64,000 nt of DNA from Candidatus Rifleibacteriota bacterium (GCA_051747585.1 JBNJGH010000003.1:1980-65979); one strand, 5' to 3'; shown: positions 1 to 39,725, counted from the first letter of the stretch. Numbers and translations are program-made. Notes: generated by a model not told the origin, from the sequence alone.

Positions 1-1408
1 AATGCTCGCATGCCCCTGACCGATTTTCAAAAAGAAAATCGACTACCGGATCTTTTTCTGCTGAAAAACTTTCAAATAATGAATAAACGCAATTTTCTTT
101 TAAATAAGCCATTACTCTTTTTACTCGTTGATTTATCGTCGTTGCATTTTCTGACAACTTGTCAGCAAGATCCCTTATTCTTTTATCTATTCCATTCCTG
201 TTAAGGTATATTCGCGTTGGCCCTGAAATATTAAGCGAAGACATCTCTACATCTCTTACAGGGGGCTGATCAATCAATACCCGAGCAAGATATCTTCTTC
301 TTGCCGACGATCTTCCCGGGAAAAATATAGAGCGATCACTCTCAACCATTATAAAGTTACTATCTATATCAAGGTTAACCGTAAGATCAGGAACAAACAA
401 AACAGGCGGCTCAGTATTTTCAAGATTAATTTCCAGCTGATGAAGGGTTCTGTCGGTATTATAATCTTCTTTCAACCAGAACTGGCCTGTGTTTTCCCTG
501 AGGTTAACAAAGTATCTGCTATATCGATTTCTATACCATCTTCCTCTGGAATAATTAGCAAAGGTTGTACCTCGCATAAGCTTGCCTTTTAGTCTTCTGA
601 GTATGGATAAAGAAAGAGAAGCCTTGTCACTCGGTCTTATCCTCATAACAACAGCAGGATTATCTTCAAGCAAACCACCTTCGCCTATAGTCAAAGCATC
701 ACTGAAACCTTTGAGGGATCGTTTAGAAGCACGAGAAGCAAGTCCATATCTTTTAGTCCTGGGAATCATATAAAAACATGATCCCCAAACCAGCACAAAC
801 AAAAAAGCCAGGCCGGCAAGTTTTAATGGGCTGAAAGTTTTACAATCGGTTGGTTTTAATTTACGGGTCAAGCAGCTATGTCGCATCATTACAATTTTAT
901 GAAGCACAATAAAGATACAGAACAAATATGGAATAAGACTCAATGGAAACAAAAAGTTTACATTCATAGCCGCTACCGCAAGAATTGCCATTAATGACAA
1001 GACTAAAAAACCCGTTACAGTTTTTGCATTATTTGTAATTTGAAGCTGAAGAACAATGATAATTGAAGTAAACTCGAGCATTATAACAATACCGGGAATT
1101 TCAAACTTGCTATAGACAATTAAAATATAACCCAAAGTCAACAGGCTTAAAAACTGAGTAAGACGTGGAAAAGGAAGCAACCTGCGACCCGATATCAGCA
1201 CAAAAAGAGAAGGAAACATTAATACAGTCATTAAAGTTCTTAAATAACCGGTTGTCCATACAGACACGAACGAAATTAAAGCTATTAGCGCCAACAATCT
1301 TAAAAAACCGGAGTCAACGGTAAAATCATTTACAAAAGCTTTGTTAAAGCTTTTAACTTTGCCTTCTATTTCCATAAATCTATCGTTTGTTTTATTTATA
1401 TCAGGCAT
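1..1408 (-). CDS. Transglutaminase-like membrane protein (TgpA/DUF3488-like). N-terminus in window; C-terminus runs off the 5' edge.
   Basis: I translated the minus strand by hand from the ATG at 1408 (MPDINKTNDRFMEIEGKVKS...). It gives an uninterrupted reading frame with multiple hydrophobic helices, then a soluble region ending ...FENRSGACEH, a transglutaminase-like Cys motif. The ORF track misses it because the frame stays open to the window edge. It sits directly downstream of MoxR and DUF58, the classic MoxR-DUF58-TGase gene order. Confidence 0.55.
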   Translation of the reverse strand, partial: MPDINKTNDRFMEIEGKVKSFNKAFVNDFTVDSGFLRLLALIALISFVSVWTTGYLRTLMTVLMFPSLFVLISGRRLLPFPRLTQFLSLLTLGYILIVYSKFEIPGIVIMLEFTSIIIVLQLQITNNAKTVTGFLVLSLMAILAVAAMNVNFLFPLSLIPYLFCIFIVLHKIVMMRHSCLTRKLKPTDCKTFSPLKLAGLAFLFVLVWGSCFYMIPRTKRYGLASRASKRSLKGFSDALTIGEGGLLEDNPAVVMRIRPSDKASLSLSILRRLKGKLMRGTTFANYSRGRWYRNRYSRYFVNLRENTGQFWLKEDYNTDRTLHQLEINLENTEPPVLFVPDLTVNLDIDSNFIMVESDRSIFFPGRSSARRRYLARVLIDQPPVRDVEMSSLNISGPTRIYLNRNGIDKRIRDLADKLSENATTINQRVKRVMAYLKENCVYSLFESFSAEKDPVVDFLFENRSGACEH

Positions 1409-2348
1409 TTATTTTACTCAGAATTTCATTAAAATCTATTCCACGACAGTCACCCGTAGGCGGAGGAATCTTGTCATACTCTTTTAAGTCGGCAAGCCAA
1501 TGCAAAAGAGTCGAATAATTATCAGTTACGGACATCCAATTATAAGAACCATGTTCCTGCCTGGCCCAGATAAAAGCATGGCTGCCGTTTTCCCGCAGTT
1601 TGAAAATGATACTGGTAACAATTTTAAGACAGTCTTCAAATACTTCGTCGGTTAGACCCGAGAAATTGAAGTAAAGCTTCTCGGGCAAACCATAGTTTAT
1701 GGATTTAATCAATACCCATTCAAAGTTTGATCTTGCCGAAATTGTCCAGTTGATTAAAGAAGCATCTTCACCGGACTGATAAGGTTTCTGCATCCAGTAG
1801 TCCCCTTCTTTTCCCGGCTCAAACTTCTGGATCGCACCGCCAATTTCTTTCTCGATAAGTTCGGGAATAACTCTTGCTTTTTTGGGCGCAACAAACACAG
1901 ACTGTTGAGGCAATAAGGCTCGAATAAAAATCAAGCCAAATGGATGAAAGGAAAACAAAGCAAAATTTTTAAGTTTATATATTCCCCGTTTTTCTGCTCT
2001 AATTCTGGTTCTAAGATAAATGATTTCTTCTGCTTCCAGTTTTCCGGTAAAGTCATCTTCAAAAGCAATACAATAATGAGCCCTTCCCTCAAATTCTTTC
2101 AAGCGACATTTTATCGAAAACTCTTCTCCGGCATAAATTTCCTCTTCAGCTTCAAGTATAGGCTCAAGACCGGAAATGTTTCTGTATGATATATATAAAA
2201 TAATAATAAAAGCTGCTATAAAACAGCTGGCCATAACAAATAACAGATTGTTGCCGGTATTTTGAGCTGAAAACAACAAAAAGACCGACAAAAAAATGCA
2301 TGCTTTACCAAAATTAGTCAGACAGATTTTAATTCGGGGTTTATTCAA
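1401..2348 (-). CDS. DUF58 domain protein, the MoxR-associated partner; N-terminal TM helices
   Basis: Contains the YQSGEDASLINWTISARS motif, which fits the DUF58 signature (Y.xGDD.R.IDW...AR). Its start overlaps the MoxR stop, and it is followed after 4 nt by the transglutaminase-like gene. Confidence 0.6.
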   Translation of the reverse strand: MNKPRIKICLTNFGKACIFLSVFLLFSAQNTGNNLLFVMASCFIAAFIIILYISYRNISGLEPILEAEEEIYAGEEFSIKCRLKEFEGRAHYCIAFEDDFTGKLEAEEIIYLRTRIRAEKRGIYKLKNFALFSFHPFGLIFIRALLPQQSVFVAPKKARVIPELIEKEIGGAIQKFEPGKEGDYWMQKPYQSGEDASLINWTISARSNFEWVLIKSINYGLPEKLYFNFSGLTDEVFEDCLKIVTSIIFKLRENGSHAFIWARQEHGSYNWMSVTDNYSTLLHWLADLKEYDKIPPPTGDCRGIDFNEILSKINA

Positions 2349-3285
2349 TCTTTACCTTTTGCAGCAATTCATGCTGAACCCACTCAGCAGGTGCTCCCTC
2401 GCTGTTAAATGTTGTTGTGCCCTTTAATCCTATTCTGTGGCACCACACACCAGGGAGCAATTCTTTAATAATATCAATATTAACGGTTTCCAGGTCTCTT
2501 AAATATGCAAGAGCCTGGGCTGCACGCATAAGTGCAATGCATCCTCTGGGGCTTACCGGCAAATCGACTTCTTCATGGTTTCTTACAGCTTCAGTTAGTC
2601 GTGTAATATAATCGTAAACATGTTCCGGAACCTCAATCTCATTAGCTAGCTTCTGACAATCGCGAATTTCGTCAAGCTCGAGAACCTGCTCTAATTTAAT
2701 CTCTGATTTCAGCCCCCATTTCATTTTCAATATTTCTTTTTCTGACTGAGCATCAGGATAGCCTATGGTCAATCGCATGAGAAATCTGTCTCGCTGAGAT
2801 TCGGGGAGAGGATAGGTTCCATGGAATCCGCGCGGATTCTGCGTCGCAATAACCATAAAGGGCAAAGATAGCTGAAAATGGTTCCGGTCGACACTTACTT
2901 CATATTCATTCATTGCCTGAAGCAGAGCGCTCTGAGTCTTAGGAGGCGCGCGGTTCAACTCATCGGCAAGAACAATATTTGCAAAAATAGGCCCTTTAAC
3001 AAATTCAAATTTTTCAAGACTACGTCTGTAAATTTTGGTTCCGAGAATATCAGAAGGTAACAGATCGGCAGTAAATTGAATTCTGTTGAAAGTACCACCA
3101 ATTGCCTGAGACAAAGCCGAAGCGAGTGTAGTTTTGCCTACTCCGGGCAGGTCTTCCATTAAAAGGTGACCATCAGCCAGCAGACAGGTCAAAGTTAATT
3201 CTATCTGGTCGGGCTTTCCAAGTATTACTGTTTTCAATTTTTGATCTAGTTCTAGTAGTGATTCTTTGAGTTGTTCTTTGTTCAT
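2341..3285 (-). CDS. MoxR-family AAA+ ATPase
   Basis: Walker A motif PGVGKTTLASALS, Walker B motif IVLADELNRAPP, and the MoxR C-terminal lid region. Confidence 0.85.
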   Translation of the reverse strand: MNKEQLKESLLELDQKLKTVILGKPDQIELTLTCLLADGHLLMEDLPGVGKTTLASALSQAIGGTFNRIQFTADLLPSDILGTKIYRRSLEKFEFVKGPIFANIVLADELNRAPPKTQSALLQAMNEYEVSVDRNHFQLSLPFMVIATQNPRGFHGTYPLPESQRDRFLMRLTIGYPDAQSEKEILKMKWGLKSEIKLEQVLELDEIRDCQKLANEIEVPEHVYDYITRLTEAVRNHEEVDLPVSPRGCIALMRAAQALAYLRDLETVNIDIIKELLPGVWCHRIGLKGTTTFNSEGAPAEWVQHELLQKVKIE

Positions 3286-9110: not shown

Positions 9111-9187
9111 ATGCCTTGATATGAGAAGTGAAAAGTTTTATACTTAGCTGTTACTAACAGTTTGACGCATTGATACCGGAGTAAACT

Positions 9188-11968
9188 TTGAAAAATTCCC
9201 TTCTCAAATCACTTGTCAAAGCACAGCACATAGAAAGCTTCAACAGTTTTTCTCAACTTGACAAAAGTTTTTTAAACGAACTTGAAAATAAACCTGCCAT
9301 TATACTGCGAGTCTATTCGGGCAAATCAGACGGATCCTGGCGTTTTCTTTATCAGGATTCTCAAAAATCATCACCTAAATCTGATATTGCAGAATTGACA
9401 GATTTTTCCGGCCAGAATCCCGAAAACCTTTTAAGCTGGCATCATAAAGACTCGGGAAACAACGAACAATATTTGTTTATCAGTCCTTATATCAATAATG
9501 GCTATCATCTGGGTGATCTTATCCTTAAAATTGAATCCGCCCCCCCCCTTGATTTTAAAGAGCTCACTGAATGGCACTTTTATTCAGATATTTTAACCAA
9601 TCTTATTTTTGCCCACTACCAGTTTGCCCCACACCTTTTACCTGTTTTTGCCAACGATTCTGAAAGACTTTTAAGTTTTATTCGTGAAACCCAACTGATT
9701 TTGACTGCCAAAAATCAGGTTATTGCCCTGACTATAGAGCAAGACAAGCAACAAGCTACAGAATGGTTCAAAGAAGACCAGCCGATTCTTTCAAAATTTA
9801 TTTCCAGAGTACAACAAGAATTAAACCTGCCCGGTATTTTTATATTACAGAATGCAGCGCCGGGCTTTATTCATCAAGTTATTGCTACTTCGAACTCTGA
9901 AAGCAAAGATTTGACAGATTCCATTTACGAAATGATCGAGGCTGTCAAACAATACGATGAAGAATTTAATCAAGCAATAGTAAATGAATACAAGCTTTTT
10001 AACAGTATATCTCAAACAGAGGGACAAAAACTGGTTCCATTGGTTTTCAGTTGTCAGGCCGGTGGAATTACCTTTGGTCATCTTGGTATTTTTGCCACCC
10101 GACAGAGCCTTGCAAGGTATCTAAACCATAGATCAAAAATTCTTCCCATGCTTGCCAATCAACTGGGATTTTATTTCAGCCACCTCCACCAGTTAAGACG
10201 CGAAGCTCTTGAAGCAAGGATGTTGCAACAAATCAACCAAACCTGCAATACAATTAACTCATCGGTAGATATAGGGGCAATCCTTTTTAAACTGGTAGAA
10301 AGTTTGAATAATTTGTTTCGCCAGTATTCAGGTGCCATCCTGATGAACTCTCCCGAAACCCAGGAACTCGAAGTTACTACCCAACTTGGCGGCCCCGTAC
10401 CTGAAAACCTTGACATCCACAGCGAATTAAAAAAGCATCCAGATATTTATGACTTAATTCATGAGGGAGCTGTATTTGATAATAGAGATGGAAAATATCC
10501 ATTACCTATACGATACATTTTACCTCTTTCTGCCACTCCTCAAGCTCTGATAATTTCAACCGATCTTGCTACTCCGGCTTCACTCGGGGCAGTAATTCTT
10601 TACGAGCATCCTATCAACAAAAACCTGACCGAAGAGACATTACAAAAGCTTTTACCTATTTTATTAAATGGTATCAGCGCTTCTTTACAGGTCGCCCGGA
10701 ACTATGCAGAAAAGCTGGAAACAATAAAATCACTCGAAGGGTTGATGTCAAAGCTTTCTGATTCTGACTCACTTTTTGACGAGATGATTACTATTATACG
10801 CCGGCTATTGAGAGTTAACCGAATTTCATTTTTAACCCTCGATGAAAGCGAAAAATATTTATACATCCAAAAAGAATTCGGTCTTCCAGAAGGAATCAAA
10901 GAAACTACCCGCATACCAATCGGAGACGAAATTTCTGGTTATGTTGCCAGACATGGCAAGTCGCTACGAATTGACAATATCGAGCGAGAAGGACTTTTTA
11001 AAAAGCGCTCAATGGAAGATTATCTTAACAGGTCATTGCTGTCGGTTCCCCTTATAAGCAAAAGCGGCGGTTCTGACAAGGTTATCGGAGTTATAAATGT
11101 AAACAACAAAACGAACGGATTAACTTTTACTCAGCAGGATCAACAATTGCTGGAGGCAATAGCCCACCTTGTTGTTACGGCACTTGAAAAGGTAAGGTTT
11201 CTTGAAGAAAAGCATGAAAAAGAATTGCTTGAGCGACAGCTTAAAGATGCCAAAGACATTCAAATGTCGTTATTGCCCAAATCTTTCAATGAGTTTCCGG
11301 CAAATATCGAGATGTATGGTAAAAGCATACCCGCAAGACAAATTGGCGGCGATTTCTTTGATATCATTCCCATGGATGACGGTCGGATACTTGTCGCCCT
11401 GGGCGATGTCTCCGGCAAAGGAATGCCCGCTGCAATCCTGATGGCGGTTTCGCGCATGATTCTTCGTTCGGTAGTTCAAGATACAAGCGACCTGACGACT
11501 ATTCTGGATAAAGTAAATCAGAAGCTTTCACTAGAACTGGACTCATACCATTTCGTTACTTTACAGATAGTAACTATCGACCCTGAAAGTGGAAATGCAG
11601 AAATGACGTCTGCCGGTCATGGTCCTTTAATGGTAAGACTTAATGGCAAGATAACTTTAATTGAAACCAAAGGCGGGCCGCCACTTGGCATTTCAGGTAT
11701 TCCGGTTGCTTTTGACACCAGAAAATTTGTAATGCATCCTTCAGATTGCCTGCTTATGTTTACCGATGGCCTTTCAGAGGAACATTCCGAAAACGGCGAA
11801 ATGTTCGGCAGCCAAAGAATAGAAAAGTTTCTTGCCCAATCCGAAGATCTAAATGCAAGGGAAACAACCGAAAAGTTAATATCTGAAGCCATAAAATGGC
11901 GCGGATCAAGAGAAGCACACGATGATTTGACACTGCTAACCTTAAAATTTAAGGGTAATATAAAATGA
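9188..11968 (+). CDS. Multi-GAF sensor fused to a PP2C/SpoIIE-type Ser/Thr phosphatase (RsbU-like)
   Basis: The C-terminal 230 aa carry the SpoIIE/PP2C motifs GGDFFDI ... LGDVSGKGMPAAILMA ... TDGLSE ... DDLTLL. GAF-like segments lie upstream. The only in-frame start is the TTG at 9188, so the start assignment is uncertain. Confidence 0.75.
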   Translation: MKNSLLKSLVKAQHIESFNSFSQLDKSFLNELENKPAIILRVYSGKSDGSWRFLYQDSQKSSPKSDIAELTDFSGQNPENLLSWHHKDSGNNEQYLFISPYINNGYHLGDLILKIESAPPLDFKELTEWHFYSDILTNLIFAHYQFAPHLLPVFANDSERLLSFIRETQLILTAKNQVIALTIEQDKQQATEWFKEDQPILSKFISRVQQELNLPGIFILQNAAPGFIHQVIATSNSESKDLTDSIYEMIEAVKQYDEEFNQAIVNEYKLFNSISQTEGQKLVPLVFSCQAGGITFGHLGIFATRQSLARYLNHRSKILPMLANQLGFYFSHLHQLRREALEARMLQQINQTCNTINSSVDIGAILFKLVESLNNLFRQYSGAILMNSPETQELEVTTQLGGPVPENLDIHSELKKHPDIYDLIHEGAVFDNRDGKYPLPIRYILPLSATPQALIISTDLATPASLGAVILYEHPINKNLTEETLQKLLPILLNGISASLQVARNYAEKLETIKSLEGLMSKLSDSDSLFDEMITIIRRLLRVNRISFLTLDESEKYLYIQKEFGLPEGIKETTRIPIGDEISGYVARHGKSLRIDNIEREGLFKKRSMEDYLNRSLLSVPLISKSGGSDKVIGVINVNNKTNGLTFTQQDQQLLEAIAHLVVTALEKVRFLEEKHEKELLERQLKDAKDIQMSLLPKSFNEFPANIEMYGKSIPARQIGGDFFDIIPMDDGRILVALGDVSGKGMPAAILMAVSRMILRSVVQDTSDLTTILDKVNQKLSLELDSYHFVTLQIVTIDPESGNAEMTSAGHGPLMVRLNGKITLIETKGGPPLGISGIPVAFDTRKFVMHPSDCLLMFTDGLSEEHSENGEMFGSQRIEKFLAQSEDLNARETTEKLISEAIKWRGSREAHDDLTLLTLKFKGNIK

Positions 11969-14082
11969 ATTCACCGCAACAAACTCTTCAATTTTACAAC
12001 CGACTTGCCGAAAAATCGGCCAATACAAAAGACTTGCATCAGCTGATCGACTCTATTATTGACGAAACAATTCATTTTCTTGATGCCGATTCCGGCTCTA
12101 TAATGGTGTATGACCAGAACGAAAATTGTCTGCGCCTGTTTGCTTCAAAAAGACACCCTAGAATAAAATCCAACAACAGCTCAGGGGCGGTAGCAAAAAT
12201 TGGTATAGATCATGGGATTGCCGGTGAAGTTTTTTCGAGTGGCAAACCTGTAATTGTAAGTGATTTAAGCAAATATGACCAAAAGCTTCGTCTCAACCAA
12301 AAAACTGCCAAAGGCTCTTTTTTATCTTTACCCCTTAAAATCAATAATAAAATCATCGGCGTAATGAATCTAAACCGGCCGCCAAAAAGAAAAGGGTTCT
12401 GCGAACAAGACTTGAAACTACTTGCATCTGTCGAAACAACCATAGCCGGCTTAATAGAAAAGGAAAAGCTTGTGGCCAGCATAGACGCCAACCGGCGCGA
12501 GATCAGCAGCCTTTATTCACTCAGTCGCATTTTAATTGAATCTACCAATTTCTATGCCGGTCTGGAAACCTTTCTTGAAAAGTTATCGGAATTTCTAAAC
12601 CTGGAGCGATCTGCAGTAATAAAAATCCCCGAGAATTACAAAAAGCAAATTAACAGCGAAGCAATTACAAATACTGAAATTGAAATTATTGCCGCAAATA
12701 AGCTTGAAAAAAAGCAACTGACAAAAATGTTTCATTCCGTATCCAGCAGGTTGAAAAATCAGTTAACCATGCCATGGACAAAGGACACTTCAGATTTCGA
12801 AAAACCGCCGTTATCGCTTTCATTCGAAGAAAATGCTGCGACCCGCGAACTTTTCTGCATCCCTCTTATAGTAGAGGGGAATCCATCACACATGCTTCTT
12901 GTCAGCCGACGCTATCTTGAAAATGATATAGAAAAGGCAAAAAAACATTATCGTTTTCTTTATTTAATTGCGCAAAACCTGAGCATGTCGCTGGAAAAAG
13001 AAAAAATGATTGAGCGCATTCATGAAGATCAAGATATGCTGCTTGCAAACGCAACCAGGAACAGAATTTTTCTGGAAATCAGTAAAGATCTGGCATCAAC
13101 CCTTGACCCATTAGTCATTTTACAAAAAGCATTTAACCAGTTCAGCGCAGTCATATCTTATACATCAATTGCCATTCTTTTGTTTGATGACCTCGATGAG
13201 ACTTATCGCCTGATAACTCAGCCAACTATTTCTATCTCAAAATCTTATCAGGAATCTATTGCAGATAATATTTTCAAACTGTTTCAAGAATTTCCGACTG
13301 ATCCTGAACTTACCAGAGAAAATTTTGCCAAACCGGTTATATTCAAGCCACAACAGGTGGGTGGAAAACCAAAGCGCACCTTTGAACAAACCCTGCATCT
13401 TCCAATAATTATAGGTGATCGAGTTGCCGGGCTAATTCATCTTTCCAGAGCTGAAAACGAGCCATTTACCAATCACGAACTCGACATTACTTCACAATTC
13501 ACCGGTATATTTATTACCAGCATCAAAAATGCGCTTATACATAAGCGCACTGAGATGCTGGCGTTTACCGACCCTTTAACCGGTCTTTTCAATCATCGTT
13601 ATTTTCAGGAAACCTTGTCGCATGAATTTACCCGTGCCTCGAGGTATTCAATTCCGTTATCATTGATGGTAATGGATATTGATTTTTTCAAAAAATTTAA
13701 CGATACCTATGGGCATCTCGTAGGCGATAAAGTCTTGCGTCACGTTGCCGGAATATTTAAGAACTCCATACGTGAACAAATCGATACGGTTGCCCGCTAT
13801 GGTGGCGAAGAATTTGCGGTTATTCTTCCGGAAACCACACTTGATGGTGCACAACAATTCGCTGAAAGAATTCGCAATACTGTAGAAGAAACTACCCTGA
13901 TGGAAGAAGACAAAGAACTTTCGGTAACATTGTCAATTGGGGTAGCATGCACAAGAGTAACTGCGTGTCATAAAACATCTGACCTGGTTGAGGCGGCAGA
14001 TAATGCTCTTTACTGGGCTAAAGAACACGGAAGAAATCAGGTAAAAACTTTTGAAGAAAGCACAATCGAAAATGGCAGCTAA
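11965..14082 (+). CDS. GAF-GAF-GGDEF diguanylate cyclase
   Basis: The C-terminus carries the RYGGEEF motif and the GGDEF fold (DIDFFKKFNDTYGHLVGD). Two GAF-like regions lie N-terminal. The ATG overlaps the upstream stop (ATGA). Confidence 0.85.
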   Translation: MNSPQQTLQFYNRLAEKSANTKDLHQLIDSIIDETIHFLDADSGSIMVYDQNENCLRLFASKRHPRIKSNNSSGAVAKIGIDHGIAGEVFSSGKPVIVSDLSKYDQKLRLNQKTAKGSFLSLPLKINNKIIGVMNLNRPPKRKGFCEQDLKLLASVETTIAGLIEKEKLVASIDANRREISSLYSLSRILIESTNFYAGLETFLEKLSEFLNLERSAVIKIPENYKKQINSEAITNTEIEIIAANKLEKKQLTKMFHSVSSRLKNQLTMPWTKDTSDFEKPPLSLSFEENAATRELFCIPLIVEGNPSHMLLVSRRYLENDIEKAKKHYRFLYLIAQNLSMSLEKEKMIERIHEDQDMLLANATRNRIFLEISKDLASTLDPLVILQKAFNQFSAVISYTSIAILLFDDLDETYRLITQPTISISKSYQESIADNIFKLFQEFPTDPELTRENFAKPVIFKPQQVGGKPKRTFEQTLHLPIIIGDRVAGLIHLSRAENEPFTNHELDITSQFTGIFITSIKNALIHKRTEMLAFTDPLTGLFNHRYFQETLSHEFTRASRYSIPLSLMVMDIDFFKKFNDTYGHLVGDKVLRHVAGIFKNSIREQIDTVARYGGEEFAVILPETTLDGAQQFAERIRNTVEETTLMEEDKELSVTLSIGVACTRVTACHKTSDLVEAADNALYWAKEHGRNQVKTFEESTIENGS

Positions 14083-16273
14083 AAAAAATAAATCTAACAA
14101 TACGACCGAGCAAACTTTTAAACGCTTATCGCGACTTTCCGATATTTCAATGGCTCTTTCTTCAGGACTCGAGCTTGACGAGCTGCTTAAAACAATGGGG
14201 CGCTCGGTAAAAGAAGCCCTTGATTCAGACGAAGTTTATTTTCTTCTCCTGATCCGAGATACTTATGAACTGAAGCTCTCGCAGGCAATAGGTATCAGGC
14301 GCAAAAGGCCCAAAAATATTCCATGTCCAGACAGGCGCACTATTATGGTATCAGAAGAAGAGTTCGGCTTTGCCCCCTGCCCCACAAATACGGATAAAGG
14401 CAAGCAAGAAAAAAAACTCAGCCCCGAAGCCAAACTAATGCGCAGTGCATTTTTCAGTCGCCAACGCCTTCTTTTTAGTGGTGAAATGAATGATCCGTTG
14501 TTCAAAGACTCTCCTTTCAAATCTGCGCTAATCATTCCTTTAACTACTAACACCAGATGTGTTGGCCTGATGTCGGTTGCCAACATAAAAAAAAGCCGAT
14601 CATTTACGGTAAATGACCTCGAAGAAGCAACCGTTTTTGCAAATCTGGCTGCCATGGCAATAGAGCACCTTACCCTTGTGGAAGAAAGAGAAAGCAGAAT
14701 AAGGGAGATGGAAAAGCTCAACACCCTGGCCAAAAGATTTTCTACGGTGCAAACCCTCGAAGGTCTTATCGGCCTTTCTTTTGAATATCTTTCGCAGCTT
14801 ATTCCCCATGACCTTGGCGTAGTTTGCCTTTTTAAAGATGACGAAGAAACCAGATATTTCGTTTCCCGATTACCACTCTCTCCCTCAAGCCTGGATCGAC
14901 TTTCTAATCACATAAACGACATCAGCTCAAAAATCCGGGGCTCAGAGTCAAGGCTTATAAGGTGCCAACAACTGTTTCTTCCAGGTCAGAAAACCCTTAC
15001 AATGACCAGTGTTTTTAGACGCAAGATTCAATCTTTTTTAACGGTTCCCCTGACTGTTCAAGGCAAAAGCATCGGTATAATTAATATTTCGGCGACAAGA
15101 GCCAATGCCTTTAACCGAGAACACTTAAGAACCTTTACTACTTTATCAAATCTGCTGGCTACAGCTGTCGAAAACGTTAAAATAAGACTATACCTTGAAA
15201 GACGCATAGATGAAATCTCTGTATTGTTTGAAATTTCTCAGTCTATTACCTCTACACTTGTTCTTGACGAAGTTTTAGACTCTATTGTGAACTTTTCAAT
15301 GGAAATGATGAACGCTCTGAGATGCGAACTTAGACTACTTGACCAAACCGGAAAACTTTTAGAGGTAAGAGCTTCACGAGGCTTGTCAAAATCATTTCTG
15401 GCTTCAACTGCAATAAAAACCGGTGAAGGAATTATAGGGAACTGTTTCTCTCAAAAGCTCCCTATTTCTGTAGTCGATGCCCGCAAAGACCCGCGAACCA
15501 AATACATCACAATGATAAAGCGCGAAAAACTTGCAGGTCTGCTTGCCGTACCAATAATACAGAGAGGCCGATCTATCGGGGTCATCACAATTTATACCAG
15601 TAAACCAAGAGACTTTTCACAAGACGAGATTGACCTGCTTTCTACTTTTGCATCTCAGGCAAGTATCGCTATAGAAAATGCTCAGCTCTATGCCAACATG
15701 AAAGAACAATATTTATCAATGGTTATGGCATTAGCCGCTGCTATAGAAGTAAAAGACTCATACACCCATGGACATAGTACAAATGTAATGGAATATGCGG
15801 TTAAAATAGCTAAAGAGCTTGATCTACCGGAAGAAGAAATTGAAACAATCAGATACGCAGGTCTTTTACATGATATAGGGAAAATCGGTATTAAAGATGT
15901 CATTTTGACCAAAAGCGGACATCTCACCGAAACAGAAATGAACGAACTGCATCGTCATCCTGAATATGGTGCAAATATCATGGAAAGGGTCGAGCTCTTA
16001 AAAGACATAGCACCTCTAACCCTTTACCATCATGAAAGATACGACGGCAAAGGATATCCTCTTGGCCTCGTCGGAGAACAGATCCCTCTGGGCGCACGAA
16101 TTCTAGCAGTTGCTGACACCTACGATGCAATGATTGCAGATCGGCCATATAGAAATGCTTTTCCTTTCGATTATGTAAAAAAAGAAATGAAAAAGGTTGC
16201 AGGAACCCAATTAGACCCTGAAATTGTAAATATATTTTTTGATATTCTTAAACGCGAAGGTAACGATAAATAA
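14051..16273 (+). CDS. Multi-GAF HD-GYP c-di-GMP phosphodiesterase
   Basis: HD-GYP signature: HGHSTNV ... LLHDIGKIGI ... HHERYDGKGYP. Three GAF-like segments lie upstream. The true start is probably the second Met at 14072. Confidence 0.85.
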   Translation: MKKAQSKMAAKKNKSNNTTEQTFKRLSRLSDISMALSSGLELDELLKTMGRSVKEALDSDEVYFLLLIRDTYELKLSQAIGIRRKRPKNIPCPDRRTIMVSEEEFGFAPCPTNTDKGKQEKKLSPEAKLMRSAFFSRQRLLFSGEMNDPLFKDSPFKSALIIPLTTNTRCVGLMSVANIKKSRSFTVNDLEEATVFANLAAMAIEHLTLVEERESRIREMEKLNTLAKRFSTVQTLEGLIGLSFEYLSQLIPHDLGVVCLFKDDEETRYFVSRLPLSPSSLDRLSNHINDISSKIRGSESRLIRCQQLFLPGQKTLTMTSVFRRKIQSFLTVPLTVQGKSIGIINISATRANAFNREHLRTFTTLSNLLATAVENVKIRLYLERRIDEISVLFEISQSITSTLVLDEVLDSIVNFSMEMMNALRCELRLLDQTGKLLEVRASRGLSKSFLASTAIKTGEGIIGNCFSQKLPISVVDARKDPRTKYITMIKREKLAGLLAVPIIQRGRSIGVITIYTSKPRDFSQDEIDLLSTFASQASIAIENAQLYANMKEQYLSMVMALAAAIEVKDSYTHGHSTNVMEYAVKIAKELDLPEEEIETIRYAGLLHDIGKIGIKDVILTKSGHLTETEMNELHRHPEYGANIMERVELLKDIAPLTLYHHERYDGKGYPLGLVGEQIPLGARILAVADTYDAMIADRPYRNAFPFDYVKKEMKKVAGTQLDPEIVNIFFDILKREGNDK

Positions 16274-16279
16274 CCACAA

Positions 16280-18907
16280 ATGACACCGGACAACTTGGAA
16301 ATAGTCGCTTTTTCGCACAATGCTGACCTTGATCAACTTGGAGCGGCACGTTGTATTTTGCTTGCTAATACCAATGCCAGCCTGATGCATCCGGTAAGGC
16401 TTAAACAAAATGCCTGGGAATTTGCACGCAAACAAAACTGGTTTGAAACCATAAATATTAAAGAAATTGATTTTAAAAAGGTCAACAAAGTCCACCTGAT
16501 TGGAGTAAGCCTGCCCAAACACAACCCTGAGCTGTCAAATAAACTGGTAAGACATAATATTGAAACAATCATTTATGCCAACAGGCGATGTAAGTTACCT
16601 TTCAAGTTCTTTACCCTCTCAACCAGAAGTCAAAGCATTACTGCCGGGTTGCTTAACAGGCTTTTAAAAGATAAGAAAGAATTCAATCACGAAGACCTTG
16701 ATCTTTTCGCCATGGCAATTTGTGAAAAAACCTGGGCCGGTCTTTCAAGCAGGGTTACGCCCACAGATCTAATTATCCTTGACTTTTTGCGCAAAAAGCG
16801 GGTTTCAAACCGTCGAATTGCCGACAGCATTGTTCTTGGCCTCAGAGAAGGACAAACCCGACTTTATCATGAAATGCTGAGAAACATTCAGGATATTCAC
16901 CCGGGCAACTGGCCTGTTACATTGATCTGCGTGAATTCAGCCGGCAAGGTTCAAGATTTGGAGCCAATTGTAGAAAGTATCTGGTCAGAAATTTGTCCTC
17001 ACATTGCTGTTATATGTATAACCTCAGGCAAATTTTCCAGGGTCTGGGCCCGAAGCAGCATAAGCGAAGTAGACCTGGCCGAAGTTTTCAAGGATTTCAG
17101 GCCCGACCTGAAAAGAAACTGGGTAAGTTTTAATTTTTCAGGAACTAACCACAAACTTAATTCTTACGTTTTAAAAGATTATCTTTTTCGCTTCCTGCCC
17201 CCGGCACTGACAGCCGAAAAAATAATGTCGGTATCGCCTCAATCAATAGACTGTATTGCTTCCGTAAAAAAAGCAATGGATGCCATGCTAAAATTCAATC
17301 TAATGTCCCTGGTAGTGACCAGACAGGGAAAATATGCCGGCATAATCACCCGCCGCGATCTTGACAGAGCAGTTCAAATGGAATTGCTCGATTCACCAAT
17401 CGAGCCCTACGTTCCGACTTCAACTCCGGTTGTGGGGCCAACAACACCTGCCAGAGCCCTGAAAAACATAATGGTTAGATTCAATCTTACCCGATTACCT
17501 GTCGTTCAAGAAAATGAGGCCATAGGAATCATTACCACCAGAGAATTGTTACGCGCTTTACCCGACCATTTGCCACTACCTCCTGATTACCTGCCATTGG
17601 CAGAAGTGGCCAAACTCCCTTCTGCAAACAAGATAGAAGAAATAATAAAGAGGGTTTTTTCTCTTAAAGTATTTCATATTTTAAGCAAAATCGGTAAATT
17701 TGCCACCCGGGATCAAATCAATGCTTTCGCTGTTGGTGGTTTTGTAAGAGACCTGTTAATGGAAAAACAGAACCTTGACATAGATATTGTTGTAATCGGT
17801 GACGCAATCCCCTTTGCCCGGAGAATGAGCAAAGAATTTAACTGCGATTTCAAAGTTTTCGATCGTTTTCATACCGCCAGAATTTACCTTGAAGATATGA
17901 AGATTGATTTCAGCTCAGCCAGAATTGAGCACTATCCTGATCCCGGAGCACTGCCCCAGATTGAATTTTCCGGACTTTCAAGCGATCTTTATCGCCGAGA
18001 TTTCACCATTAACTCACTGGCACTAAGTCTTAACTCTGTAACATTTCTTGAATTAAAAGACTTTTTTGGCGGATTTGCCGATCTAGCGCAAAAAAAAATC
18101 AGAATTCTACATTCTTTCAGTTTCATAGAAGATCCTACCCGCCTTTTCAGAGCAATCAGATTCGCAAGGCGTTTTAACTTTAATTTCGAAAAAGATACAA
18201 GACGTGCATTTGACCTGGCGGTTCATCGCGGATGCATGCGTAAGCTTTCGATAAAAAGAATCGGAAGTGAAATTTCGCGTTGCCTTAACGAAGAAAAGCC
18301 CTACAAAATAATAGAAGAATTGTTTAACAATGATTTAATGACAGCTTTGAGTCCTGAACTGAACGATATCTCAATGATTCCGAGTAGATTCAGGCTTGTC
18401 AAAGGACTGGTCAAAAGATTCAAAGTTATTGAAGAAGAAATTGATGAAGAGGCTATTTTATGGACAGGACTGCTGTGTACCCTTTCTCCACAGAAAGCAG
18501 CAAATATTCTCGATTCTATCGGAACTCCCCACAGCAGAAGAGTACTGGTGGTAAGTGCTTTAAAAGCCGTCAACCAGGTTCCTGAAAAAATATCAGCTGT
18601 AGATATTGATAACAACAGCAATCTTTTTAATCTTCTTTCACCATATCCAATAGAAGCTTTGATCGCTTTAATGGCATTTGCTCTTGAAAAAAGAAATTCC
18701 AGAAAAGTCTTGAAATTTATTGGAGAATTAAGAACAATAAAGCCCCTGATTAACGGACATGACTTGATTTCAGCCGGGATCCCACCCGGACCACATATGA
18801 GAACTATTTTTAAACATATCCTTGAATTAAAGCTTCAGGGAAAGAAACTTAGCAAAAATAAGGAGTTGGAAATTGCCATACAGAAATATAAGATTTTATC
18901 GAGCTAG
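16280..18907 (+). CDS. Multidomain tRNA nucleotidyltransferase / poly(A) polymerase-family protein with a DHH-like N-terminus and a CBS pair
   Basis: Poly(A) polymerase head-domain motif GGFVRDLLM ... DIDIVV ... RRDFTINSLA. A CBS pair (two MSLVVTRQGKYAGIITRRDL-like units). An N-terminal IVAFSHNADLDQLGAA DHH-like motif. Confidence 0.7.
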   Translation: MTPDNLEIVAFSHNADLDQLGAARCILLANTNASLMHPVRLKQNAWEFARKQNWFETINIKEIDFKKVNKVHLIGVSLPKHNPELSNKLVRHNIETIIYANRRCKLPFKFFTLSTRSQSITAGLLNRLLKDKKEFNHEDLDLFAMAICEKTWAGLSSRVTPTDLIILDFLRKKRVSNRRIADSIVLGLREGQTRLYHEMLRNIQDIHPGNWPVTLICVNSAGKVQDLEPIVESIWSEICPHIAVICITSGKFSRVWARSSISEVDLAEVFKDFRPDLKRNWVSFNFSGTNHKLNSYVLKDYLFRFLPPALTAEKIMSVSPQSIDCIASVKKAMDAMLKFNLMSLVVTRQGKYAGIITRRDLDRAVQMELLDSPIEPYVPTSTPVVGPTTPARALKNIMVRFNLTRLPVVQENEAIGIITTRELLRALPDHLPLPPDYLPLAEVAKLPSANKIEEIIKRVFSLKVFHILSKIGKFATRDQINAFAVGGFVRDLLMEKQNLDIDIVVIGDAIPFARRMSKEFNCDFKVFDRFHTARIYLEDMKIDFSSARIEHYPDPGALPQIEFSGLSSDLYRRDFTINSLALSLNSVTFLELKDFFGGFADLAQKKIRILHSFSFIEDPTRLFRAIRFARRFNFNFEKDTRRAFDLAVHRGCMRKLSIKRIGSEISRCLNEEKPYKIIEELFNNDLMTALSPELNDISMIPSRFRLVKGLVKRFKVIEEEIDEEAILWTGLLCTLSPQKAANILDSIGTPHSRRVLVVSALKAVNQVPEKISAVDIDNNSNLFNLLSPYPIEALIALMAFALEKRNSRKVLKFIGELRTIKPLINGHDLISAGIPPGPHMRTIFKHILELKLQGKKLSKNKELEIAIQKYKILSS

Positions 18908-18920
18908 ACCGCCTGGAGGA

Positions 18921-19703
18921 ATGCCAAAAGAATCTTTTGACCGCCTTATAATAATTGTCGGTTTGATTCTGTTTTTATTTGCCTTGAGCCTCGCATTTCA
19001 AAGCCCAAAAGACATTCTTTCTTCAGCAATACATTATATTGTGCTTATTCCGGTCATTTTAATTTCTCTGACATTTCATGAACTTGCACATGCTTTAATG
19101 GCCGATTTTCTTGGCGACCCAACCCCGAGAAGAATGGGAAGAATTACGCTTAACCCATTACGTCACCTCGACATACTGGGAGCAATGATGCTTTTTATTG
19201 CCGGCTTTGGCTGGGCCAAGCCGGTAAGGGTCGATTCGAAAAACTTTAGAGTGCCTGCCAAAGCCATGGCAGCGGTAGCTATAGTAGGGCCGCTTTCCAA
19301 CTTCAGCATGGCGGCTATTGGAATGCTTCTGATGAAGGGCCTGGCTGCGCTGATTAATTATGCCGAGCTGGCACCAATAGTTGTAATGCTTGGCCAGAGA
19401 ACACTCGAAACTTTTATTGTGATAAATCTCGGCCTTGGCATTTTTAATCTGCTGCCCTTTCCACCCCTTGACGGTTCAAGAATAGTATCATTCGTGCTTC
19501 CGGCCAGGTATAGACTGCAATATCACAGGTTCGAAGAAGTTGCCCCCTTTATACTACTCATTCTATTTGCCCTGGGTGGACTCGGAATGCTCCTTACGCC
19601 GCTGATAACCAATTCATACAGCTTTTTAAACAACATCACCGGAAACCCGATAAAAGAAATAAGCCTTTATCTTTTTAAATTTACAGGAGGAGTAACCCTG
19701 TAA
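18921..19703 (+). CDS. Site-2 protease family (M50-like) membrane metalloprotease
   Basis: HELAHALMADFLGDPT (HExxH inside a TM helix) followed by RITLNPLRHLD, typical of small S2P/SpoIVFB-like proteins. I chose the start at the Met after the upstream stop. Confidence 0.6.
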   Translation: MPKESFDRLIIIVGLILFLFALSLAFQSPKDILSSAIHYIVLIPVILISLTFHELAHALMADFLGDPTPRRMGRITLNPLRHLDILGAMMLFIAGFGWAKPVRVDSKNFRVPAKAMAAVAIVGPLSNFSMAAIGMLLMKGLAALINYAELAPIVVMLGQRTLETFIVINLGLGIFNLLPFPPLDGSRIVSFVLPARYRLQYHRFEEVAPFILLILFALGGLGMLLTPLITNSYSFLNNITGNPIKEISLYLFKFTGGVTL

Positions 19704-27831: not shown

Positions 27832-29052
27832 ATGGAAAGAGGCGTTACCGATGACTCTGCATTTCCCTTACCCCTTTCTCTTTACATCATTTTTTTTCCC
27901 ATAGCTATAGGAATCCTTGGACCAAGTTTCATTGTCGCCGACATATTTTTTCTTTTATTTATTTTTGCCTGTCTCATTAAAGCCTTTATTAGGAAACAAT
28001 TTACCATTATTTCTTTAGACGCTATATTTTTAATTTTTCTTGGGTGTACGGCATTCGGCAACAATATTACCGCTCACTTGCCCGCCTATTTGTTTGAAGT
28101 AGCTTCTCTTGTTTACATGTATGCAGGATCTCGATGCATACTAAGCCAGATTGACAGTAGCGAAAAACTAAACCAATTTATTGATCTGATAAGAAAAGTT
28201 TTTATTATATTTTTGTTATTTTCCGCCATCATAATAATTTTCAGGGCATTAGGTTTTAATCACATAACCGAGTCATTTTTCAAATATGGTAAAAATTACA
28301 AAGGCTTTTTTAATTTTACCAATCAGCTATCCATCTTTTTTGCCTGTTTATGGCCAATTACAATTATTGGCTTCTCTGAAAAGCCGGCTTGGAGATTTTT
28401 CTTTTACTTTATTTATTTAGTCATTCTCAGCTACACAGGATCTCGCAGCGGCTTCTGGATAGGTCTTGGGCAAACCACTCTAATTGAAATTCTTTTTTGC
28501 AACAAAAAACAGAGCGCATTTTTAGTGGCACGAGCTTTTGGCCTTGCCGCCGTTCTTTTTTTTGTTATAACCATTATGGCAACCATGCCGTCTTTAAACA
28601 GGAGTTTAGGACAAAACAAAGACGCTTCTTTGAGCCTGGATCAACCAAGAATTATAAACTTCCGCAATGCTTTTAACAATTCAAAATCCTGGCTAAGCGG
28701 ATATGGTTTAGGCTGTTTTGACCAGGTCTATCGCTTCGAAGTCCACAGCACTCCGTTGTCAATTTTAGTTGAAACAGGAATCTGTGGTTTTCTGTCTTTG
28801 TCGCTGGGAATTATTATTTTTGCTAATGCTTTTTTAAGGGCAAGTCCCGACCGATCCCTACCAAACCTGAAAAAAGCTCTTATCATTTCTTATTTGGGAA
28901 TTATAGGAATTGGAACAGTTAATTATTTGTTTCGAAACCGTTCCTGCTGGTTATTATTTGCAATAACCCTTGTATTTATAAAAATCCAAAGTAAAGAAAA
29001 AGTTTTACTCAAAACATTTGCAAAGACTTCTGGCGAATATAAACATAACTGA
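27832..29052 (+). CDS. O-antigen polymerase/ligase family (Wzy-like) polytopic membrane protein
   Basis: About 10 TM helices and a Wzy_C-like loop (GYGLGCFDQVYRFEVHSTPLSILVETG). Confidence 0.6.
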   Translation: MERGVTDDSAFPLPLSLYIIFFPIAIGILGPSFIVADIFFLLFIFACLIKAFIRKQFTIISLDAIFLIFLGCTAFGNNITAHLPAYLFEVASLVYMYAGSRCILSQIDSSEKLNQFIDLIRKVFIIFLLFSAIIIIFRALGFNHITESFFKYGKNYKGFFNFTNQLSIFFACLWPITIIGFSEKPAWRFFFYFIYLVILSYTGSRSGFWIGLGQTTLIEILFCNKKQSAFLVARAFGLAAVLFFVITIMATMPSLNRSLGQNKDASLSLDQPRIINFRNAFNNSKSWLSGYGLGCFDQVYRFEVHSTPLSILVETGICGFLSLSLGIIIFANAFLRASPDRSLPNLKKALIISYLGIIGIGTVNYLFRNRSCWLLFAITLVFIKIQSKEKVLLKTFAKTSGEYKHN

Positions 29053-29944
29053 CCAGCATTTTTTGAATAAAGCCTTTCCACATAGACCTCAATATTTCAT
29101 TTCGTTTTAAAAATCTGGCATATCTTAAAAATCTAAAAGTCTCACTAAGGCTCAGATGCCCAATACTTGCCAATCCTGTTTGAAAAAATTCTTTTGAAAG
29201 CGCAGTTTTATAAAATTTACCACCTTTATATTTTTCAAGAATTTTCATTCTGTTTTCATGCATATATTTGAAATTAAAAACGGTATTGCTGTCGTGTATT
29301 CTATACTTGGCAACGGGCACAGGCAAAGACCGCAATTTACCTCCCGCATCAGACAATTTAAGCCACATATACCAATCCTCTATTTTAATATTAGAATCAT
29401 AACCACCGACGTTTTGAACAGCATCTCTTCTAAGTAGGGCTGCAGGCCCTGAAGGTATGTATTTTTGCATTATAAGCTCCTCAAAACTATGCCAATGATC
29501 CATACCTTTTTGTATTTTTAATACTTTACCCTCTTCGTCAATCAATTCGTATCCACCGAAAGCTGCAGAAATTCTTGAATCTTTTTCTAATATTGGAAGT
29601 AAAATTTTTATCTTTTCGGGCAAAAGAATATCGTCAGATGCAACAACCATAAAATATTTGCCGTCTGCCCAGGCAAGTCCCTCATTTAAAGTTGGCGTAA
29701 GCCCTTTGTTAGGTCTATTTCTATACTCAAACCTCTTTAAAGAGGCTTGGCAAATATTGAGTATTGGCTTGATACGTTCATTGGTTTTGTCGTTTGAGCC
29801 ATCATTAATCAATATAAATTCCAGATTGTTATAATCCAGCCTCAAAACGCTTTTTACAGCTTCAACAACAAATTTTTCATGATTATAAGCCGGCATACAA
29901 ACAGAAATTAAGGGGTTATTTTCAGTTGTTTTTTCTTTTGCCAT
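29009..29944 (-). CDS. Glycosyltransferase family 2
   Basis: ISVCMPAYNHEKFV ... LINDGSND GT-A signature. Confidence 0.8.
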   Translation of the reverse strand: MAKEKTTENNPLISVCMPAYNHEKFVVEAVKSVLRLDYNNLEFILINDGSNDKTNERIKPILNICQASLKRFEYRNRPNKGLTPTLNEGLAWADGKYFMVVASDDILLPEKIKILLPILEKDSRISAAFGGYELIDEEGKVLKIQKGMDHWHSFEELIMQKYIPSGPAALLRRDAVQNVGGYDSNIKIEDWYMWLKLSDAGGKLRSLPVPVAKYRIHDSNTVFNFKYMHENRMKILEKYKGGKFYKTALSKEFFQTGLASIGHLSLSETFRFLRYARFLKRNEILRSMWKGFIQKMLVSYVYIRQKSLQMF

Positions 29945-30248
29945 GAGTTTTATTATGTACGTTACCTACTTTTTTAAAAAGTAGCAGCAGAATAGAATTT
30001 ATAATCTAGAACAAAAAACATACTTGGGCAAGACATAAAGATTGTAATACCAGACAAAGCTCTATTGTATGGAATCAACTCCTTGAATTTTCGAATATAT
30101 TGGAATAAGCTATAGCTTGATTGAATGTTTTCTACGCTCAAATACTTGCAGATGACTGCTTGAAAAAAAAGACAGTTAAATTAGCTATTCAGCAAATTTT
30201 TCACGTAATTTTCCAGTCTCCAACATCAAATTAAAATTCTGAAAAAAA

Positions 30249-31127: not shown

Positions 31128-31148
31128 AGAACACTTTATGAATATTTT

Positions 31149-39719: not shown

Positions 39720-39725
39720 TTACTT

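Follow-up and report, generated by a model that had tools for sequence, protein, structure and literature searches.

An operon conserved across Candidatus Rifleibacteriota carries PP2C, GGDEF and HD-GYP proteins with separate GAF-type sensor arrays

Do a PP2C-type phosphatase, a diguanylate cyclase and an HD-GYP phosphodiesterase whose genes lie end to end, each output preceded by its own set of sensor modules, belong to one signalling system, or are they simply neighbours? The question is raised by a 64,000-nucleotide stretch of DNA from a Candidatus Rifleibacteriota bacterium (GCA_051747585.1, JBNJGH010000003.1:1980-65979), referred to below as the window. Reading of the open reading frames (ORFs) of the window identified five tightly packed ORFs on the + strand, which together span positions 9188-19703 and which we call P1 to P5 (lengths in amino acids, aa):

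9188..11968, + strand: P1, 926 aa, PP2C/SpoIIE phosphatase output
11965..14082, + strand: P2, 705 aa, GGDEF diguanylate cyclase output
14072..16273 (or from TTG 14051), + strand: P3, 733 aa (or 740 aa), HD-GYP output
16280..18907, + strand: P4, 875 aa, CBS-containing nucleotidyltransferase of the A-adding/CCA type
18873..19703, + strand: P5, 276 aa, M50 intramembrane metalloprotease

An earlier note on this DNA had described three genes, adjacent and overlapping, whose outputs are PP2C, GGDEF and HD-GYP, in an operon running on into a CBS nucleotidyltransferase and a site-2 (M50) protease. The ORFs, their junctions and the Pfam matches to P1-P3 bear out the first statement, and Pfam matches to P4 and P5 the second. 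By direct reading of the sequence, P1 and P2 overlap by 4 nucleotides (nt; ATGA), the gap between P3 and P4 is 6 nt, and P4 and P5 overlap by 35 nt. The overlap of P2 and P3 is 11 nt if P3 starts at ATG 14072 and 32 nt if it starts at TTG 14051. In most orthologues of P3 there is an upstream in-frame stop, and the first possible start is the ATG aligned with position 14072, so this ATG appears to be the likelier start. P1 and P5 both start with TTG, preceded by GGAG 6 nt upstream and by AGGAG 7 nt upstream respectively.

P1 was used to scan one genome per species, which yielded 23 loci, and a search with P3 added two more (L024 and L025), giving 25 related loci. When the window proteins were compared with the 23 loci by tblastn, the order P1-P2-P3-P4-P5 was found in every sufficiently long locus, and the same gene order was present in 25 of the 25 related loci as far as the contig reaches. 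The arrangement is therefore far beyond chance. Junctions in the orthologous loci are likewise overlapping or minimal. L024 and L025, the most divergent P3 relatives examined, keep the PP2C-GGDEF-HD-GYP-nucleotidyltransferase series, one of them together with the M50 gene, in flanks that differ from those of the window. Because this core is kept despite variable flanks, and because translational coupling is conserved, the operon is likely to be a functional unit.

Nearly all of the 23 loci are labelled Candidatus Riflebacteria, Rifleibacteriota or Ozemobacteraceae. Searches with the P1 profile and with P3 found full-length relatives of these proteins in the Riflebacteria clade only. The P3 search returned approximately 75 clusters of full-length relatives with at least 56% identity, followed by an abrupt fall to single-domain matches. 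The best relative of P1 is 73% identical and comes from a Ca. Ozemobacter sp. Among the three signalling proteins, conservation is highest in P3 (70-84% identity) and lowest in P1 (49-73%, 20 full-length orthologues); 18 full-length orthologues of P2 were found. Two loci with other labels, L003 (DYKG01000020.1, 'Candidatus Methylomirabilis sp.') and L009 (SABV01000006.1, 'Erysipelotrichia bacterium'), match the Riflebacteria-type synteny in full, with a P1 identity of 54-64%, and are probably mis-binned or mislabelled contigs of metagenome-assembled genomes. The best explanation of this distribution is that the five-gene operon is a conserved signature of Candidatus Rifleibacteriota. We consider it probable, though well short of certain, that P1-P3 constitute a co-expressed cyclase/phosphodiesterase pair for cyclic di-GMP (c-di-GMP) with a phosphatase arm, each gated by its own GAF array.

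This reading supposes that the three output domains are active enzymes. They were located as follows, with residue positions of P3 given throughout in the 740-aa numbering:

11375..11950, + strand: PP2C/SpoIIE domain of P1, aa 730-921, after a long helical linker of ~60 aa
13561..14040, + strand: GGDEF domain of P2, aa 533-692, with GGEEF at aa 613-617
15734..16225, + strand: HD-GYP domain of P3, aa 562-725

The output domain of P1 matches Pfam SpoIIE over the full profile (E value 1.9e-45; 155.6 bits against a cut-off of 25 bits), and the linker before it contains a helix at aa 649-694 in the AlphaFold2 (AF2) model. Across 21 aligned sequences there is no variation in the PP2C signatures GGDFFD, TDG and HDD, and almost none in GDV[SA]GKG, where two sequences have Ala in place of Ser. 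We take the Asp/Gly signatures of the PP2C family (GGDF[FY]D, DVSG[KH]G, TDG and the C-terminal DD) to be metal ligands.

The output domain of P2 matches Pfam GGDEF (PF00990) with an E value of 5.5e-51 (173 bits, cut-off 23.8) and TIGR00254 with 182.5 bits (cut-off 37.4). DIDFFKKFND and RYGGEEF are invariant in 19 P2 sequences. In the register of PleD, which we assume to place RxxD five residues upstream of GG[DE]EF, the inhibition site (I-site) position reads EQID rather than RxxD, the Arg being displaced by one (REQID), in 19 of 19 sequences. Since every orthologue reads EQID at this position, classical I-site feedback is probably absent from P2.

The output domain of P3 matches Pfam HD_5 (6.7e-40, 137 bits) and HD (5.4e-24, 85 bits). 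In 17 sequences IE[VA]KDSYTHGHS (containing the Glu of the IExKDSYTxGHS loop), LLHDIGK and HPEYG are invariant, as are HHE[RK][YF]DGxGYP (HHERYDGKGYP in the window), VADT[YF]DAM with its Asp, and RPYR, which corresponds to the RxY[K/R] motif. At the KPG position the window reads K-S-G, and the orthologues KKE, KEG, KQG or KQE. Roles have been assigned to the HD-GYP motifs, including that of the loop Glu in binding a third metal and that of RxY[K/R] in specificity for c-di-GMP (10.1101/2021.11.05.467447). The GGEEF and HD/GYP motifs that the earlier note had seen as intact are indeed so, and are invariant across the orthologue alignments.

These residues also bear on the proposal that one or more outputs are degenerate, with the HD-GYP or GGDEF domain serving as a sensor of c-di-GMP or GTP, as a scaffold or as a trigger enzyme. 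GGDEF and HD-GYP proteins that lack catalytic activity and act through contacts with other proteins are well known (10.1101/2021.11.05.467447), and the very high conservation of P3, in which the HD-GYP domain is 84% identical among orthologues and the adjoining GAF domain 90%, would also fit an interaction surface. All the catalytic and metal-binding residues that were checked are, however, present and, across the clade, essentially invariant in the three outputs, the opposite of what is expected of degenerate domains, and we regard non-enzymatic outputs as extremely unlikely.

To define the sensor arrays, separately scanned stretches of each protein were compared with the Pfam GAF families PF01590, PF13185 and PF13492, and profiles of the orthologues were compared by hhalign. 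The modules preceding the outputs are:

9188..9658, + strand: P1 module a, aa 1-157, alpha/beta module with little conservation and an uncertain fold
9659..10222, + strand: P1 module b, aa 158-345, GAF-like by structure model only
10223..10753, + strand: P1 module c, aa 346-522, read as a divergent GAF
10766..11188, + strand: P1 module d, aa 527-667, canonical GAF adjoining the output domain
12028..12459, + strand: P2 GAF1, aa 22-165, Pfam GAF_2 2.8e-23
12550..12927, + strand: P2 middle module, aa ~196-321, GAF-like by structure model only
13108..13500, + strand: P2 GAF3, aa ~382-512, weak GAF
14171..14665, + strand: P3 GAF1, aa 41-205, Pfam GAF 9.4e-10
14723..15175, + strand: P3 GAF2, aa ~225-375, Pfam GAF_2 4.1e-10, C-terminal half only
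15263..15679, + strand: P3 GAF3, aa 405-543, adjoining the output domain, Pfam GAF_2 1.3e-19

At the level of Pfam there are thus three GAF domains in P3, one and a further sub-threshold one in P2, and one in P1. Two to three GAF-like domains had been proposed for each protein. The count holds by profile for P3, whereas the remaining modules of P1 and P2 are linked to GAF by weak hidden Markov model (HMM) similarities or by fold models. The N-terminal regions can accordingly be described as GAF-type sensors, with a qualification for aa 1-520 of P1 and aa 170-380 of P2.

In P3, GAF2 and GAF3 matched each other in hhalign with 95.8% probability. Mean identity to the orthologues is 65% for GAF1, 81% for GAF2 and 90% for GAF3, where it was measured against the window copy and where 70% of the columns are invariant (17 sequences). 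GAF1 contains an insert (window 14300-14400, aa ~85-115) with the phylum-invariant sequence R[KR]RPxxIxCxDRRT[IV]xxSxEEFGFAPC, including two invariant cysteines; NT[QR]CVGL of the same domain contributes a third Cys, which is mostly conserved. The insert may be a redox- or metal-sensing site.

The AF2 model of P2 aa 1-540 (mean predicted local distance difference test score, pLDDT, 78) consists of three alpha/beta modules joined by helices of 30-55 residues. Its top Foldseek matches were the tandem-GAF proteins PDE5A, PDE6, PDE2A and CyaB2 and the GAF-HD-GYP protein PmGH; three-domain phytochrome sensory modules were also matched, in alignments of up to ~600 columns. The third module is the best-modelled part (pLDDT ~85-92). 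It matches Pfam GAF_3 at an E value of 1.3e-3, which is below threshold (~aa 385-512), and P2 GAF1 and P3 GAF3 in hhalign with 54-61% probability. The middle module gave no Pfam match (aa 170-380) and no hhalign match. On the basis of the model, we accept P2 as a protein of three predicted GAF folds.

The sensor region of P1 is the most divergent. Module d is a clear GAF domain (Pfam GAF 3e-14, GAF_2 1.1e-13), and sub-segments of aa 1-520 matched no Pfam family. The AF2 model of P1 is poor (pLDDT 57), being based on an alignment of seven sequences, with six retrievable N-terminal homologues, and the fold-search output for P1 is without query ranges, so that its GAF matches are not assignable to single modules. 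A profile of P1 aa 1-545 was run as a full HMM search against 1.84 billion representative proteins. Only 26 proteins were found at E ≤ 1e-3, and all but two or three of them are orthologues of the PP2C protein or fragments of these. Two are clearly outsiders, and both of these are multi-GAF histidine kinases (E values 3.4e-6 and 1.2e-4). In one kinase (P0158) the profile of module c falls on all five GAF repeats, at the start of each; in the other (P0159) it covers the whole third GAF. As it lands on true GAF repeats, we read module c as a divergent GAF, with weak sequence support; a search of its profile against PDB sequences found nothing.

Module b is the best-modelled stretch of P1, with a topology of a1-b1-b2-a2-a3-b3-b4-b5-a5 and pLDDT values of 70-83 for most of aa 190-310. 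No link of its sequence to GAF was found by Pfam, by hhalign or by a profile search against PDB sequences. That last search did match TAL effectors (E value 2.7e-5), but in nearly all of them no single stretch passes alone, and we therefore rejected the match as a repeat-summed artefact of 'CQAGG/CQAHG'. The module carries the invariant motif PLVFSCQAGGxT[FY]GHLG (window 10037-10087, aa 284-300), in which Cys289 and His298 are conserved. Module a has four strands at low pLDDT in the AF2 model, and gave no match with Pfam or hhalign.

Pfam-positive GAF domains of the operon are related to each other in hhalign with 84-97% probability; no GAF signal was obtained from the orthologue profiles of P1 modules a, b and c or of the P2 middle module. 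Matches between P1 modules b and c (91%) and between P2 modules b and c (50%) proved to reflect residues shared by overlapping slices, and were discarded. Recognisable GAF domains of different proteins are 21-27% identical over the domain, and the other modules have no detectable similarity. Recent duplication of the GAF domains is ruled out by these values, since identity between proteins is at most 27%, compared with 50-90% among the orthologues of each GAF; on the choice between recent duplicates and divergent domains that the earlier note had raised, the answer is that they are divergent. Conservation climbs toward the output domain in P3, as described above, and in P1, where mean orthologue identity is 26% for module a, 44% for b, 68% for c and 77% for d. 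Low identity between proteins together with conservation among orthologues suggests that the arrays are ancient and individually constrained, and this fits different inputs rather than one shared signal. The idea that all three proteins sense through the same kind of domain can be kept in so far as the domains are GAF-type; it does not imply the same signal, with identities of 21-27% or less.

P1, P2 and P3 all lack transmembrane segments and are therefore soluble and cytoplasmic; we read them as one-component signalling enzymes. Under the reading that we prefer, translational coupling would cause the cyclase and the phosphodiesterase to be made in fixed proportion, as a push-pull pair that sets the level of c-di-GMP. 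The activity of each enzyme would depend on what is bound or sensed in the cell by its own divergent GAF array, and the signal would be passed through a dimeric helical linker, as in GAF- or PAS-regulated PPM phosphatases, GGDEF cyclases and histidine kinases. The cellular level of c-di-GMP would in this way integrate several intracellular cues. The PP2C arm would remove phosphate from a protein whose gene lies elsewhere in the genome, a STAS- or SiaC-type partner being the likeliest, and would either feed back on the cyclase, as in the SiaABCD system, or drive a parallel partner-switching output. That the three proteins work together we infer from the conserved, translationally coupled gene order; the enzymatic activities, the ligand gating, the PP2C substrate and the coupling between members of the operon, P4 and P5 included, are likewise predicted. 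A functional link between GAF, HD-GYP and GGDEF domains has independent support, because the nearest HD-GYP domains outside the clade often share a polypeptide with GAF and GGDEF domains (P0099-P0102, P0115).

The proposed PP2C arm requires a partner, and ORFs of at least 120 aa in the window were compared with Pfam, small intergenic ORFs being inspected by eye. No STAS protein, anti-sigma kinase (HATPase_c-type), sigma factor, SiaB or SiaC, or PilZ protein was found within the 64-kb window, in agreement with the earlier observation that no STAS or anti-sigma partner lies nearby, and no STAS or anti-sigma partner genes were found in the flanks of the related loci. The expression D[ST][ST]G, representing a STAS-like phosphorylation site, had no match in the operon proteins. 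A GAF-GAF-SpoIIE relative from outside the Riflebacteria (P0116, locus L026) had no cyclase, phosphodiesterase or STAS gene adjoining it.

If there is no adaptor to be found, P1 might dephosphorylate P2 and/or P3 directly, with a Ser/Thr kinase encoded elsewhere and no STAS- or SiaC-like protein, making a self-contained c-di-GMP switch. The lack of an adaptor or kinase gene near the operon in the 25 loci examined and in the 64-kb window would agree with such a scheme, as would the translational coupling of P1 and P2 through the ATGA overlap and the confinement of full-length P1 and P3 relatives to the same clade. Characterised phosphatases of the SpoIIE/RsbU-type PPM family, on the other hand, act on small STAS- or SiaC-type partners (PMC7278518, PMC12143880), and the operon proteins contain no STAS-like DS[ST]G phospho-site motif. 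We consider direct phospho-control improbable.

A different possibility is that P1-P3 are three co-located but independent one-component sensors in a syntenic housekeeping region, each with its own signals and targets and with no interaction beyond co-transcription. Several observations that weigh against a joint c-di-GMP system also speak for this alternative. The upstream genes for an M18 peptidase and a holA-like protein, and the downstream genes for ferritin, an HD protein and MgsA, are conserved in most loci too, so the conserved order could partly reflect generally high synteny of the region. GAF arrays that are 21-27% identical or undetectably related are consistent with unrelated inputs. 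No kinase, STAS- or SiaC-like partner, PilZ protein or other c-di-GMP effector, and hence no partner gene shared by the three proteins, was found in the 64-kb window; within it the PP2C arm is therefore without an identified substrate and the c-di-GMP arm without an identified target. GAF-PP2C genes that stand as orphans, with no partner, occur commonly elsewhere in unrelated contexts, and therefore the adjacency of the PP2C gene alone proves little. A joint system is weakened further by P1 modules a and b and the P2 middle module, whose designation as possible GAFs comes from modelling (pLDDT 57 in the case of P1) without sequence support, and by the fact that activities and co-transcription are here predictions from sequence. 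Independence is nevertheless hard to reconcile with L025 and L024, where the flanks differ and the PP2C-GGDEF-HD-GYP-nucleotidyltransferase core is intact, or with the conservation of overlapping start/stop junctions. Moreover, a cyclase and a phosphodiesterase of one messenger are linked functionally by their chemistry, and GAF-HD-GYP-GGDEF fusions are known in other lineages. We judge three independent sensors to be rather unlikely, and retain the c-di-GMP pair with a phosphatase arm as the preferred reading.

The last two genes of the operon encode proteins of other kinds. P4 contains two CBS domains, a PolyA_pol head domain and PolyA_pol_RNAbd (Pfam), and is a class II nucleotidyltransferase. 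Its aa 7-869 align with positions 2-876 of the 880 in NCBIfam NF041569, the A-adding tRNA nucleotidyltransferase, and the score of 332.6 bits is below the equivalog cut-off of 1440 bits. P4 therefore appears to be a relative of that enzyme with the same architecture, rather than a proven equivalog. A gene of the P4 family follows P3 in every locus where the contig reaches that far; in L014, L015 and L024 it encodes a short nucleotidyltransferase of 421-430 aa with neither the N-terminal extension nor the CBS pair. The extension of ~320 aa in P4 (window 16280-17240) has no Pfam match, and opens with 'SHNADLDQLGA', which by eye resembles DHH motif I. P5 matches Pfam Peptidase_M50 and has 5-6 hydrophobic segments. 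Its motifs HELAH and NLLPFPPLDG are the HExxH and NxxPxxxLDG of active M50 proteases.

A further possibility is that all five genes form a self-contained unit without an adaptor, in which the GAF-gated PP2C would act directly on the cyclase or the phosphodiesterase, and the CBS pair of P4 and/or P5 would read c-di-GMP or a GAF ligand. We think this very improbable. If true, it would tie second-messenger signalling to tRNA/RNA 3′-end processing or to regulated intramembrane proteolysis throughout the phylum.

Two features were located at the ends of the operon:

9116..9144, + strand: candidate sigma-70-like promoter, TTGATA-17-TATACT, within the 293-nt gap upstream of P1
19715..19773, strand not assigned: hairpin of 59 nt separating P5 from the convergent ferritin gene

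The 293-nt gap separates P1 from a divergent M23-peptidase gene. The promoter candidate is the top-scoring match of the scanned region (10 of 12 positions); a promoter and terminator scan across the operon gave match counts that were not above those of shuffled sequence, and it is by position that the site is put forward as a candidate. The hairpin is very stable (-42.7 kcal/mol, z = -8.7 relative to shuffles). Its T-run is on the - strand side, that of ferritin, making it formally the intrinsic terminator of the ferritin gene; it marks the 3′ end of the operon. An Rfam scan of the whole window gave 0 matches, and no tRNAs were found.

The upstream neighbours of the operon encode an M18 aminopeptidase, a holA-like protein, ribosomal protein S20 and the M23 peptidase, and the downstream neighbours ferritin, two small HD proteins and MgsA. 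At the start of the window (1-3285, - strand) is a MoxR-type cluster consisting of a MoxR AAA+ ATPase (2341-3285), a 315-aa protein without family (1401-2348) and a TgpA_N/transglutaminase-like membrane protein (~1-1407) that runs off the window start and is represented by its N-terminal part; a neighbourhood of the same type is also present in L024. A polysaccharide/O-antigen-type cluster lies further downstream of the operon, at 23.7-36 kb. Within it, the genes at 28000-32000 (Wzy-like, GT2, sulfotransferase and unknown) have a G+C content lowered to 32-35%, compared with ~40% elsewhere, which is typical of horizontally exchanged glycan genes. Two large TPR proteins, one with a double zinc ribbon at its N terminus, have three small consecutive ORFs without family match (39048-40533, + strand; 223, 137 and 134 aa) upstream of them. 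A PD-(D/E)XK transposase-family ORF (52516-53523, - strand), with a 12/24-nt tandem repeat at 52715-52776, and an N6_Mtase/Eco57I/TaqI_C DNA methyltransferase-like gene (57340-59007, - strand) may be mobile or restriction-modification elements.

In the literature that could be searched, no description was found of the operon, of the three-gene set, or of signalling in Riflebacteria or Ozemobacter. The parts are familiar; their composition is undescribed and phylum-conserved, and the N-terminal sensor region of P1 is clade-restricted. Between lineages, signalling proteins are usually quick to turn over. Retention of P1-P3 across the phylum therefore suggests a core regulatory circuit in an uncultured group about whose functions little is known, and the operon may be the main c-di-GMP control point of Candidatus Rifleibacteriota.

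The closest parallel in gene content is the SiaABCD system of Pseudomonas aeruginosa, in which the adaptor SiaC, once dephosphorylated by the phosphatase SiaA, activates the cyclase SiaD, all encoded in one operon (PMC7278518). PP2C and GGDEF genes are co-transcribed in that system, where the phosphatase controls c-di-GMP synthesis, and they are adjacent here. NCBIfam matches are at the level of domains and far below the equivalog cut-offs (P1 with SiaA, 32 against 700 bits; P2 with SiaD, 162 against 290 bits). No gene for a SiaB kinase or for SiaC (DUF1987-like) lies between P1 and P2, which overlap by ATGA, or elsewhere in the window. P1 is soluble and carries GAF modules, unlike SiaA, which has been described as membrane-located, and the operon described here adds an HD-GYP phosphodiesterase. 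As no kinase or adaptor gene lies nearby, the operon is not a member of the SiaABCD family, nor is it a classical partner-switching module, although it may work in a SiaABCD-like manner. Should the PP2C arm regulate the c-di-GMP enzymes without a pair of the SiaB/SiaC type, the known wiring from phosphorylation to c-di-GMP would be extended.

RsbZ of Clostridioides difficile is a tandem-GAF PPM phosphatase, and according to one proposal a sensor-linker principle based on a coiled-coil linker can be exchanged between PPM phosphatases, GGDEF cyclases and histidine kinases (PMC12143880). P1 resembles RsbZ and other GAF-PPM proteins of the RsbU/SpoIIE family in having N-terminal GAFs joined by a helical linker to a PPM/SpoIIE-type domain. 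RsbZ acts with RsbV/RsbW and sigma B, none of which was found near P1, and P1 differs further in having approximately four N-terminal modules, of which two to three escape standard profiles and are clade-restricted. The operon offers a compact natural test of whether one type of sensor-plus-linker module can drive phosphatase, cyclase and phosphodiesterase outputs.

P3 fits the GAF-HD-GYP family typified by PmGH of Persephonella marina (PDB 4MCW, among the top structural matches for the GAF models). PmGH and Tlr0485, like P3, have one or more GAFs before a complete HD-GYP domain with the Glu of the trinuclear site and RxY[K/R]; in Tlr0485, cAMP gates HD-GYP activity through the GAF domain. P3 differs from PmGH in having three GAFs rather than one, and in reading K-S-G at the KPG motif. 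The tandem-GAF proteins PDE2A, PDE5A, PDE6 and CyaB2 and the PAS-GAF-PHY module of a phytochrome cyclase (PDB 5LLW) are 10-17% identical to the sensor modules and have different outputs, and the resemblance of fold carries no sign of cyclic-nucleotide or bilin binding here. The single-chain GAF-HD-GYP-GGDEF fusions unite the same three domain types in one unit. They resemble P3 in the HD-GYP domain only (35-46% identity over ~25% of P3), whereas in the operon the activities are on separate polypeptides with their own GAF arrays, and a PP2C protein is added. Each protein is of an ordinary family type and implies no new biochemistry; what is unusual is their conserved arrangement.

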